64,000 bases of DNA from Acidimicrobiales bacterium (GTDB lineage Bacteria > Actinomycetota > Acidimicrobiia > Acidimicrobiales > Aldehydirespiratoraceae), in assembly GCA_965116485.1 (NCBI GenBank), contig OZ220692.1, positions 3,250,134 through 3,314,133 on the forward strand, written 5' to 3'. How positions within the stretch are numbered: position 1 is the stretch's first letter; the number at the start of each line of letters is the position of its first letter. This document shows, in pieces, positions 13,242 through 16,188 of this stretch. The notes beneath the pieces are model-generated. The model was not told the DNA's origin and ran no database searches. It saw only the letters and a program-made list of their open reading frames with translations. The position numbers and the translations under genes are program-made.

Positions 13242-14132
13242 TCAGATACAGATATTTCCAACGAGCCGGAAAAGTGCGTCTTGGTCGGGGGGGAGACCTG
13301 TTGGACGGCCCTCTGACTTGGCTCGCACGGGGTCGAAGTCGATGAACCAGGACTTTAACAGAGCATGAGCGAGGTCCTCCAAGGTCTTGCTCATGCGCCG
13401 ATTCAACTCGATCTTGTCATCCAAAGCTCCTAAGGTCCCAGAGATTCGCCGCTGTTCCTCAATCGGCGGTACGCGAATCTGAAGAGAATGCGCATTGTTG
13501 CGGTTCAGCCCAGGTACAGCGCGATCAGAATTCATTTGATCTAAACCGAGTTTGCTCAATGAAAAATATTTGAAACGCGCAATTTCAGGATCGGACTCTT
13601 CATGAAAGAAAGTTGTGTCGATAGGCCAACAAGGCACCGGTGAATAACTAATCGAGCCGACTGAACCTTTGCGTCCCACTACAATTGTGCGTCCTTTCGT
13701 CAAGGCTTTGTCATGGTATCCGATTATTCCATTAGAGCCATACACCGGAACGCCGCCACATGAATTTCGATCGCTCTTCTTTAGCGCCTTACCATAACTT
13801 AGTGGAGCAAACTGAATCAATGTCGACGATGGTCCATCTGTATGACGGTCTTGGATTGTCACAAATTGGTTGGCGATTTCTTGGCGAAAGGTCTCAGGGA
13901 TCGAGTGCCAGTCCATCACATCCACCGAAAATGGCAAGTCTGACTCTTCAAACGCTTCACGTAATGATGCTAAGATCATCGGATCCAGTGGTTCTGGTCC
14001 AACAACCGCCAAATCAAGATCTGAAGCATCCTTCGCCGACCAATTGACGCGCGACCCGTAAGCACGAACCGTATAGTCTGGAACGTATTCTTCCAGCACC
14101 TCCAGAACCATCACCAAATGGTCCGGACGCAT
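13242..14132 (-). CDS. hsdS: MNT-type nucleotidyltransferase domain fused in frame to a single-TRD, C-terminally truncated type I specificity subunit (HsdS)
   Basis: N-terminus has YGSRVNWSAKDASDLDLAVVG...ESDLPFSVDVMDWHSI (minimal NTase). It is followed by a TRD and the central conserved region LGALDDKIELNRRMSKTLEDLAHALLKSWFIDFDPVRAKSEGR, ending just where a second TRD should begin. ATG at 14132 lies 1 nt after the HEPN stop. Confidence 0.7.
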   Translation of the reverse strand: MRPDHLVMVLEVLEEYVPDYTVRAYGSRVNWSAKDASDLDLAVVGPEPLDPMILASLREAFEESDLPFSVDVMDWHSIPETFRQEIANQFVTIQDRHTDGPSSTLIQFAPLSYGKALKKSDRNSCGGVPVYGSNGIIGYHDKALTKGRTIVVGRKGSVGSISYSPVPCWPIDTTFFHEESDPEIARFKYFSLSKLGLDQMNSDRAVPGLNRNNAHSLQIRVPPIEEQRRISGTLGALDDKIELNRRMSKTLEDLAHALLKSWFIDFDPVRAKSEGRPTGLPPDQDALFRLVGNICI

Positions 14133-14133
14133 A

Positions 14134-14556
14134 TCAATCAGTGGCGAGTTCAAGCTTCTCAACCAAGTACTTTGCGTCATCGATAAAACCGTTGACAGTT
14201 GACGTTACGAAGTTCGCTATCGCTTCACTGTATTCATGTGTCGTCGAAATTCGTAGTTTGTGATGTTCCAGCCAATCCTCCGCGTCGGCAATAAGATGCT
14301 GCTCGGCAGCCAGGCGAAAAAGTGCCTTACGGGTGGTAGGGATCGGAAGAGGGACAAGTCCCGCCTCTTCAAGCCACCGTTTCATCAGTTTCCAAGACAA
14401 CTCGTATGTGATATCGAAGTTCTTGATGACACCCGCGCGCAGGCCATCCTTCTCGATGTCCGTGAATAGCGCCATCCGTATCTGGTCGGTCGTAACGGCC
14501 GCTAGGTTCGCGAGGTTTTCGACCGAACTGCGGAGCGAATCGACTTGGATGGTCAC
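14134..14556 (-). CDS. HEPN-domain protein (HI0074-family nucleotidyltransferase substrate-binding protein)
   Basis: 140 aa with GVIKNFDITYELSWKLMKRWLE and RKALFRLAAEQHLI, followed by the cognate MNT domain. Confidence 0.8.
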   Translation of the reverse strand: MTIQVDSLRSSVENLANLAAVTTDQIRMALFTDIEKDGLRAGVIKNFDITYELSWKLMKRWLEEAGLVPLPIPTTRKALFRLAAEQHLIADAEDWLEHHKLRISTTHEYSEAIANFVTSTVNGFIDDAKYLVEKLELATD

Positions 14557-14565
14557 GAGGCAACC

Positions 14566-16188
14566 CTAGTCCGTGGCGACAGTAGAACGGTCGGGATAAC
14601 CCAGCCTGATCAGGTTGGCGTCGATCAATTCATCAAGTTGCGCACCTTCGGCCCGCTGCTCTCTCCATTGCGCAGACAATCGGGTCATCTTCTGCTCGAA
14701 AGGTTCGCCGTCTTCGTCCTCCGCCTCTACTCCGACGTACCGGCCAGGGGTCAGGACATGGCCGTGAGAGCTGACCTCATCAAGCGAAGCGGACTTGCAG
14801 AAACCCGGCACGTCTTCGTACTCCCCCTCTGCTGAGCCTCGCCAAGCGTGATAGGTGTCGGCGATGCGAGAAATGTCCTCGTCGCTCAGTTCCCGGTGCG
14901 TGCGATCGACCATATGGCCGAGCTTCCGAGCGTCGATGAACAGCAACTCGCCCGAGCGGTTCCGGAACCGGCCTCCGACTCGTCCTCGGGAAACGAACCA
15001 CAAACAAGCGGGAATCTGGGTCGAATAGAAGAGCTGGCCAGGCAGCGCAACCATGCAGTCCACCAAGTCGCCCTCAATGAGATTGCGGCGGATCTCACCC
15101 TCACCGGACTGCTCCGACGACATCGAGCCGTTGGCGAGCACGAACCCGGCGACACCTGCCGGCGACAGATGGTGGACCATGTGCTGCACCCATGCGAAGT
15201 TGGCGTTGCGAGGCGGTGGCACACCGTACTTCCAGCGTTTGTCGTCCACGAGGCGCTCGCCACCCCAGTCCTTCACGTTGAAGGGAGGATTCGCCAGGAT
15301 GAAGTCTGCCCGCAGGTCGGGGTGGCGGTCGTCATGGAACGTGTCCCCATGGGCAATCTGACCCTCAATTCCCCGGATGGCCAGGTTCATCTTCGCCAAT
15401 CGCCAAGTGGTGTAGTTCGATTCCTGCCCGTAGACGGAAATATCCCGGCGTGTCCCACGAGGCTGAGCACCGTTCCCATTCCCGTTGCCAGAGGCATGAG
15501 CCGCGATGAACTCAACCGACTGGACGAACATCCCAGATGATCCGCAACACGGGTCATAGACGCGACCTTCGTATGGCTCCAGCATCTCGACAAGCAGTTT
15601 GACAACACAACGAGGGGTGTAGAACTCACCGCCCCTCTTGCCCTCAGCGCTGGCGAACTGCGACAAGAAGTACTCGTAAACCCTGCCGAGCACATCCTTC
15701 GACCGCGCATCCTCAGTTCCGACAGCGATGTTGCTCACCAGGTCGATGAGCTGGCCCAATCGCTGCTTGTCTAGCGCCGGTCGGGCGTAGTCCTTCGGAA
15801 GCACGCCTTTCAGAGCATGGTTCGCCGACTCGATCGCCTCCATCGCCTCGTCCACCGTCATACCGATATGAGGTTGGCGTGCATCGGCCTTCAGTTCGCC
15901 CCAACGGGCCTCGGGTGGAACCCAGAAAACGTTCTCTGCCAGGTATTCGTCCGGATCCTCGGGATCGGCACCCGTTTCGACTTCGTCCAGAAGGGCCGAG
16001 TGCCTCTCCTCGAAGGCGTCCGACACATACTTGAGGAAGATCAGTCCAAGAACAACATGCTTGTACTCCGCCGCGTCCATGCTGCCTCGGAGGGTGTCAG
16101 CCATCTGCCAAAGTTCAGCCTCGAACCCGGTCGTTGCACCCTGCGAACCAGCGCCTGACCCCGATTTGCCAGACCGTCCCTTCGCCAC
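14566..16188 (-). CDS. hsdM: Type I restriction-modification methyltransferase subunit M
   Basis: 540 aa with [41 protein letters not shown]-like [10 protein letters not shown] and ILANPPFN. Confidence 0.92.

Follow-up and report, generated by a model that had tools for sequence, protein, structure and literature searches.

How does a type I restriction-modification (R-M) locus come to hold a toxin gene, an antitoxin domain joined in frame to half of a specificity subunit, and no restriction subunit, and why would such a stump persist? We addressed this question for the locus at positions 13242-16188 of a 64,000-nucleotide stretch of contig OZ220692.1 from an Acidimicrobiales bacterium (hereafter the window), in which three genes, hsdM, a HEPN gene and an MNT::hsdS fusion, are arranged head to tail on the minus strand. 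Toxin or abortive-infection genes are a known feature of type I R-M operons, within which PrrC and various toxin-antitoxin (TA) pairs have been found embedded, and HepT/MntA is regarded as one of the most abundant TA modules. HEPN-MNT genes cluster with R-M operons (PMC3710099). HepT/MntA pairs are defined by an RX4HXY motif in the toxin and a GSX10DXD motif in the antitoxin, and oligo-AMPylation of the HepT tyrosine blocks the RNase (PMC7641770). Comparison with homologous loci indicates that the window locus is very probably what deletions have left of a widespread composite operon consisting of hsdM, hepT, mntA::hsdS, optional cargo and hsdR.

Results

An antitoxin domain in frame with half of a specificity subunit

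The first gene of the locus, hsdM (14566-16188, minus strand), is an intact open reading frame (ORF) for a 540-aa type I N6-adenine DNA methyltransferase subunit. Its product matches N6_Mtase (E=2e-105) and HsdM_N (E=1e-29) in Pfam and MTase_I (E=2e-217) in PADLOC, shows DPCCGSSGM and NPPF motifs in its translation, and supplies the HsdM subunit expected of a complete type I R-M system. The second gene (14134-14556, minus strand) encodes a 140-aa HEPN or HepT-like toxin of the HI0074 family, which matches Pfam NTase_sub_bind (E=2e-26), aligns to HI0074 (PDB 1jog, E=1e-10) and scores 63.4 bits against a cut-off of 55.8 on NCBIfam TIGR01987 (HI0074); no PADLOC defence model matched it. Its 3′ end overlaps by 47 nt the 5′ end of a single 312-aa ORF (13242-14180, minus strand), in which Pfam recognises both Polbeta/MNT (aa 38-112) and Methylase_S (aa 122-268). 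The gene order, the HI0074/HI0073-type identity of the HEPN-MNT pair and the union of MNT and HsdS in one reading frame, all proposed in the original prediction, were thereby recovered from ORF, Pfam, NCBIfam, PDB and Foldseek comparisons.

The N-terminal part of the 312-aa ORF (13845-14180, minus strand) is an MntA-like nucleotidyltransferase domain (aa ~15-112; Polbeta, E=1e-8) that matches HI0073 (PDB 1no5) at E=6e-25. It is followed by a linker (aa 113-120) and the first target recognition domain (TRD1) of HsdS (aa ~121-238; 13467-13844, minus strand), as delimited by Methylase_S, alignment and the AlphaFold (AF2) strands at 118-236, and then by the HsdS central conserved region (CCR; 13269-13466, minus strand), comprising a helix (aa 240-280) and a WF[VI]DFDPVRAK...DALF segment placed by alignments, AF2 and the DNA junction described below. 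PADLOC assigned the HsdS part to Specificity_I (E=3e-44), and alignment to relatives showed that the usual HsdS N-terminus is kept behind the linker of ~10 aa. An AlphaFold model of the whole ORF, built with 57 homologues as input (pLDDT 89.6), consists of an MNT fold (aa 19-110), a short linker, the TRD (118-236) and a 40-residue helix (240-280). In Foldseek searches the first domain matched HI0073 (1no5; TM score 0.94, normalised to the target, 48% identity) as well as MntA antitoxins, and the remainder of the model matched HsdS structures. Among the matches to the TRD-helix part was also the half-size (~190-aa) HsdS-like Esub1 (PDB 8vsq/8vsr), with a target-normalised TM score of about 0.6; Esub1, co-crystallised with the phage protein paratox, is a natural single-TRD S-like protein.

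The MNT::HsdS fusion is the architecture of a large family

The fusion had been singled out as unusual, a view that the comparison with other genomes did not support. Besides the identical sequence, a protein search with the 312-aa ORF returned a list full of 480-540-aa proteins combining PF18765/PF01909 with PF01420, and more than 100 of the 120 protein clusters listed carry both MNT and HsdS domains. Named fused homologues come from Acidimicrobiia, Chloroflexota, Caldilineaceae, Dehalococcoidia, Methylobacillus, Truepera, Latescibacteria and others and, where their annotation is named, it reads only "restriction endonuclease subunit S". The window protein is 55-70% identical over aa 14-304 to fused members such as P0003 and P0005.

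For a scan of the surrounding loci, one genome was kept per species, the window's own genome not being among them, which gave 80 loci whose ORFs were searched with the window MNT, HsdS, HEPN and HsdM and with the HsdR of a relative. MNT and HsdS occupied one ORF in 43 of these loci, which span more than 15 phyla; the sample was ranked on similarity to the fused query, so that the count does not give an unbiased frequency. A separate MNT was present in five loci and none in 32. The question whether such fusions recur elsewhere is answered by these 43 genomes. The operon around them is consistent: the HEPN gene ends within a few nt of the MNT start in 39 of the 43 fused loci, hsdM lies upstream in 40, and hsdR follows downstream in 34, at distances of -61 to about 6000 nt and often with cargo genes in between. 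The window TRD1 is common to only eight of the 43, the other 35 sharing just the conserved helix region, which argues that the MNT domain stayed attached while the TRDs were exchanged. Positions 1-105 of the PADLOC Specificity_I model PDLC03138 (485 positions) align to the MNT part, so that the fusion already resides, unremarked, within curated S-subunit models.

At the window the fusion is likewise in one frame with a HEPN gene immediately upstream and hsdM before it; the full S part of the ~500-aa proteins (TRD1, helix, TRD2, helix) and a downstream hsdR are absent. Judged by these sequences, the MNT::HsdS fusion is the standard architecture of a large family rather than a local oddity, with no sign of an origin in the window genome. 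No description of it was found in the searchable full-text literature, subscription-only papers and REBASE lying outside the search; as far as could be found, an architecture that is widespread and conserved has therefore gone undescribed.

By their names only, several carriers of the fused architecture (L004, L007, L019, L025, L026, L040, L068 and L085) look sponge-associated. These names include Poribacteria, Candidatus Poriferisodalis, the isolate codes SB0670, RHO2/RHO3 and STY2, and the JGI record "SP3Tswi", which holds the window's allele. The window organism may itself be one of the sponge-associated Acidimicrobiia.

The truncated ORF recurs in independent assemblies

The 312-aa ORF is colinear with its ~500-aa relatives up to F304 ("PDQDALF"), after which eight unrelated codons (RLVGNICI) and a stop (13242-13268, minus strand) form a deletion junction in place of TRD2. 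The relatives continue past F304 with FPDSF..SELGEIPxGW, TRD2 and a C-terminal helix, and of the two TRDs and two conserved helical regions of HsdS only TRD1 and the central helix remain at the window. The placement of the stop exactly at the TRD2 boundary (...DALF), as given in the original prediction, agrees both with this alignment, in which homology ends at F304, and with the DNA junction.

Past the stop, a 367-bp spacer (12875-13241) separates the truncated hsdS from vapB. A TRD2 remnant 3′ of the stop was sought on both strands by tblastn with 120 homologues and by Pfam on six frames of 12828-13290, and none was found; nor did the spacer match any compared locus by blastn or tblastx. An inverted spare hsdS′ or a TRD2 remnant at this position was rejected accordingly.

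A fusion or truncation of this kind could in principle reflect an assembly or sequencing error, that is, a stop codon overlooked between the MNT and HsdS parts or a frameshift ahead of TRD2, and another half-size homologue, P0029 (311 aa), sits on a contig with hsdM, hsdS and hsdR each broken up, much as long-read frameshift noise would leave them. We rejected P0029 as a recurrent functional half-S, since it probably represents noise from assembly or an array of pseudogenes. For the window ORF, the same fused and truncated frame was found unbroken, in the same context, in three more independent assemblies: L001 (a Logan contig, run ERR14375724), L085 (JGI sample 3300003175) and L086 (Logan run SRR2157455), which excludes an assembly artefact. 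No stop separates the MNT and HsdS parts in any of them, the fused frame is kept in 43 other species, and no TRD2 coding remnant is present downstream in any frame. An error is accordingly hardly credible here and essentially refuted.

An intact syntenic relative reveals two deletions

The closest full-length relative, P0003 (70% identical), is encoded on the metagenome contigs L002 and L003, which share with the window the flanking genes for a GFO_IDH oxidoreductase, an XylA2-like protein, an FGGY kinase and an SLH beta-propeller at 86-89% nucleotide identity. The order on L002 is hsdM, HEPN, MNT::hsdS (500 aa), a 1339-aa protein, DUF433, an ISL3 fragment, vapB-vapC and hsdR. Aligned to the window, hsdM (L002 7924-9525; window 16201-14600) is 92.5% identical, the segment comprising the C-terminal part of MNT, TRD1 and the CCR (L002 10210-10854; window 13932-13288) 75%, vapBC (L002 17660-18332; window 12874-12201) 81%, and the hsdR upstream region with the hsdR start (L002 18380-18480; window 8538-8437) 87%. 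L002 10854-17660 is absent from the window. The 1339-aa protein of unknown family (L002 11616-15635, also on L003), located between MNT::hsdS and hsdR, has no Pfam match.

These junctions show that one deletion took everything from the first TRD2 codon to just upstream of vapBC. On the same alignment a second event is shown to have removed hsdR beyond its first 18 codons, with a HipBA / ImmA / ISL3-fragment block now in its place. What is left of hsdR is a stub of the upstream region and these 18 codons (8436-8538, minus strand; blastn, tblastn): aa 2-18 of the relative's HsdR match window 8486-8436 at 88%, and homology stops there. No HsdR was found by Pfam among the large window ORFs, and tblastn with the relative's HsdR returned only the 18-codon stub (8436-8489), in a search that covered the 64-kb window and not the rest of the 3.5-Mb genome. 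Apart from the stub, the reported lack of hsdR in the window is thus confirmed, and within these 64 kb the locus does not have the HsdR subunit of a complete type I system. With TRD2 and cargo deleted and hsdR reduced to 18 codons, restriction by the window locus is gone. Because a syntenic relative carries the complete operon and the window retains the 5′ stub of hsdR, the window system must once have had the full layout, and the designation of the locus as a decaying relic was well founded.

Several further deletions are evident around the locus in the window lineage. Relative to L002, ~754 bp are gone within the XylA2-like gene (site 20121-20126), leaving a 193-aa C-terminal ORF (19673-20254), the whole Lactamase_B gene between the FGGY and SLH propeller genes is missing (site 18134-18181), and the PIN/ImmA block beside hsdM has been lost.

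A different HEPN-MNT::S allele lies behind hsdM

HsdM of the window and of L002 are 93% identical in amino acids (synonymous divergence, dS, 0.29; ratio of non-synonymous to synonymous divergence, dN/dS, 0.14), compared with 36% for HEPN, 58% for MNT, 76% for TRD1 and 77% for the central region, and the break in identity falls in the last ~35 nt of hsdM. A nearly identical hsdM next to a diverged HEPN-MNT::S segment indicates that the latter is a different allele behind hsdM.

Windowed GC content bore out the lower GC noted earlier for this segment: hsdM has 0.605, HEPN 0.52, MNT 0.49 and TRD1 with the CCR 0.50, with a minimum of 0.46 in 300-nt windows. In fused loci generally, the mean GC of HEPN, MNT and HsdS is 6-8 points lower than that of hsdM and hsdR, and since the dip is found across fused loci, low GC alone is no proof of a recent swap. 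The suggestion that the segment was a swapped-in cassette is partly supported: the diverged allele behind a 93%-identical HsdM speaks for it, whereas its original basis in low GC, a family-wide property, does not by itself.

Is the stump a working methyltransferase?

Alignment, the AF2 model and the intact hsdM together provide what a half-HsdS methyltransferase would need, namely an N-terminal TRD, a complete central helix and an HsdM partner. The stump could accordingly be a working orphan enzyme in which two MNT::TRD1-helix chains dimerise and bind two HsdM subunits, the resulting M2S′2 complex methylating a palindromic bipartite target while HEPN-MNT only stabilises the locus. The layout matches that of the engineered dimerising truncations EcoDXXI-deltaC (TCA N8 TGA) and EcoR124I-delta50 (GAA N7 TTC) (PMC3874165), hsdM has its motifs, the truncated S keeps the whole of TRD1 and the full helix at aa 240-280, and the ORFs are kept in four assemblies.

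The sequence differences among these assemblies lean in the other direction. Over 6 kb, only 13 substitutions (0.2%) separate L085/L086 from the window, so few that intact ORFs say little about selection. The fused ORF accounts for four of the 13, three of them non-synonymous; the numbers are tiny. Two changes, one in each of the two sampled lineages (F275L in the window, H231R in L085/L086), alter residues that at least 90% of the family share, which hints at relaxed constraint on the HsdS part, and the surroundings are full of gene fragments. We therefore give the orphan methyltransferase an appreciable but minor chance of being correct.

The toxin-antitoxin motifs are conserved

The motifs that define HepT/MntA pairs are intact on both sides at the window: the HEPN protein carries RX4HXY as RISTTHEY, and the MNT domain carries GSX10DXD as G42 S43 X10 D54 L55 D56. 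Across the family, RX4HXY is kept in 39 of the 41 HEPN genes that precede a fused S gene and GS..DxD in all 45 MNT domains of fused relatives. Such conservation favours a working type VII TA module over a degenerate substrate-binding pair; the HEPN protein would then be an RNase toxin silenced through AMPylation by the MNT domain.

The older idea for HI0073/HI0074 holds that the two proteins are subunits of a nucleotidyltransferase, which here would be targeted by S to DNA or another substrate (for example DNA, HsdM or a phage protein). HI0073/HI0074 are indeed the closest relatives of the window pair, the HI0074 family bears the name "nucleotidyltransferase substrate-binding subunit", and a tether to a DNA-recognition subunit would suit a targeted modifier. 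A HEPN protein recruited as a mere substrate-binding module, however, typically loses the residues in question (PMC3710099), whereas the RNase R..H dyad and the acceptor tyrosine of RX4HXY, the signature of an AMPylation-controlled HepT (PMC7641770), are those retained in 39 of 41 loci. We consider this alternative unlikely.

Neighbouring genes and a second defence island

In the window, the genes for VapB (Phd/YefM; 12594-12827) and VapC (PIN; 12202-12597), identified by Pfam (12202-12827, minus strand), follow the spacer; in the intact relative this pair lies just upstream of hsdR. Between vapC and the hsdR stub is a block (8539-12201) that is absent from L002. Pfam identified in it hipB/hipA (8615-10305, plus strand), a fragment of an ISL3 transposase Zn-ribbon (10319-10648, minus strand), a 395-aa ImmA/IrrE peptidase (10773-11960, plus strand) and, at its vapC end, a DUF4411 PIN-like gene cut to 81 aa (11960-12205, plus strand; profile positions 1-48 of 159), so that 8615-12205 has the appearance of a patchwork of TA-like genes and fragments. 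The HipBA, ISL3-fragment, ImmA/IrrE and DUF4411 proteins have no homologues in L002. A relocation of the ImmA/PIN block found beside hsdM in the relative was considered as the source of the window ImmA/DUF4411 block and rejected, the proteins being without similarity. A related ISL3 DDE fragment is located at 52449-53137. On the 3′ side of the hsdR stub the sequence is unrelated and includes a 194-aa ORF with no family match (7883-8467, plus strand), and just past the stub is a gene for a stand-alone Macro domain protein (7199-7711, plus strand; Pfam Macro, E=9e-47).

A second defence island occupies window positions 39369-51179. It begins with an HKD(PLD)+SNF2 helicase (39369-42578; PADLOC "HKD+Snf2" C3a139, E=2e-50) and a 1163-aa methylase with a Type_ISP_C specificity domain (42578-46069; PADLOC REase_MTase_IIG, E=2e-223), a pair that looks like a type ISP/IIG enzyme split into a nuclease-helicase gene and a methylase-TRD gene. 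Next in the island come genes for a 930-aa DUF4365 protein (46257-49049) and, on the minus strand, a SIR2_2 / PDC-S65 protein (49125-51179). The large ORFs at 39369-49049 were considered as a type I HsdR and rejected, being the HKD-SNF2 helicase, the type IIG/ISP-like methylase and the DUF4365 protein.

Discussion

The window locus itself is an ordinary decaying defence locus, and the architecture that it exposes is the widespread, conserved one described above. By homology to HepT, its HEPN protein would act as an RNase toxin (PMC7641770), and the tethered MNT domain, by analogy with MntA, would use its GSX10DXD site to AMPylate the tyrosine of RX4HXY and so silence the toxin. Loss of the 5′ part of hsdS from the window locus would then remove the antitoxin and unleash the toxin, making this part of the gene, together with the operon that expresses it, addictive and able to outlive the remainder of the system. 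Addiction to the antitoxin would explain why TRD2, cargo and hsdR have been lost but hsdM, HEPN and MNT::S′ kept, and would in our reading best account for the persistence of the stump.

For the intact family, the covalent link would tie neutralisation of the toxin to the specificity subunit. This could stabilise the R-M genes, and the HEPN RNase could, in a PrrC-like manner, serve as a back-up suicide arm if the methylase core were lost or blocked; both proposals are speculative. Put together, and offered as a tentative model that we hold with more doubt than conviction, the HsdS-tethered MntA would, across more than 15 phyla, maintain the AMPylation of HepT only as long as the M2S core is there and left undisturbed, such that loss of R-M or attack by phage anti-restriction factors frees the toxin, a covalent link between immunity and suicide or addiction. 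At the window, the addictive half would have outlived restriction and may still form an M2S′2 methyltransferase with two MNT domains.

Several observations count against this account of the locus and its family. The MNT part scores 33.8 bits on the NCBIfam MntA equivalog, under its cut-off of 60. In canonical pairs the MNT gene is almost always 5′ (PMC3710099), whereas the toxin gene comes first in all 39 fused loci with a HEPN gene, and with the order reversed the regulation may differ as well. The ranked sampling of the 80 loci and the scarcity of substitutions among the four assemblies, both described above, belong on the same side.

An antitoxin enzyme housed within a specificity subunit offers a concrete system in which TA-enforced retention of defence genes can be tested, and the same operon allows a test of whether TA modules add a further, suicidal layer of defence once restriction has been disabled. 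The window amounts to a natural experiment in this respect: after the loss of restriction, the surviving piece carries toxin and antitoxin, as addiction would predict.

Among known systems, the type VII TA module HepT/MntA (Shewanella SO_3166/SO_3165, with HI0074/HI0073 as the closest solved structures) shares with the window an RX4HXY HEPN protein and a GSX10DXD MNT domain encoded by adjacent, overlapping genes. Unlike in HepT/MntA, the window antitoxin is the N-terminal domain of a type I specificity subunit and not a free protein of ~130 aa, and in the fused family the toxin gene comes first and the pair lies within an hsdM-hsdS-hsdR operon. The ~500-aa MNT::HsdS subunits have the same HEPN gene and hsdM upstream as the window, which differs from them in being without TRD2, the C-terminal helix and hsdR. 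EcoDXXI-deltaC and EcoR124I-delta50 resemble the window S′ in consisting of an N-terminal TRD and the central helix and in ending at the TRD2 boundary; their symmetric specificities were shown together with hsdM and hsdR, whereas at the window any such activity is putative, hsdR is deleted and an MNT domain occupies the N-terminus. PrrC in EcoprrI is, like the toxin of the fused family, a HEPN-superfamily RNase within a type I operon that is silenced via R-M proteins (PMC3874165, PMC3710099), a functional analogy that concerns the intact family. PrrC is a large ABC-ATPase-HEPN protein, masked non-covalently and triggered by the T4 Stp peptide, an architecture that the window HEPN does not share: it is a 140-aa single-domain protein and is presumably silenced enzymatically.

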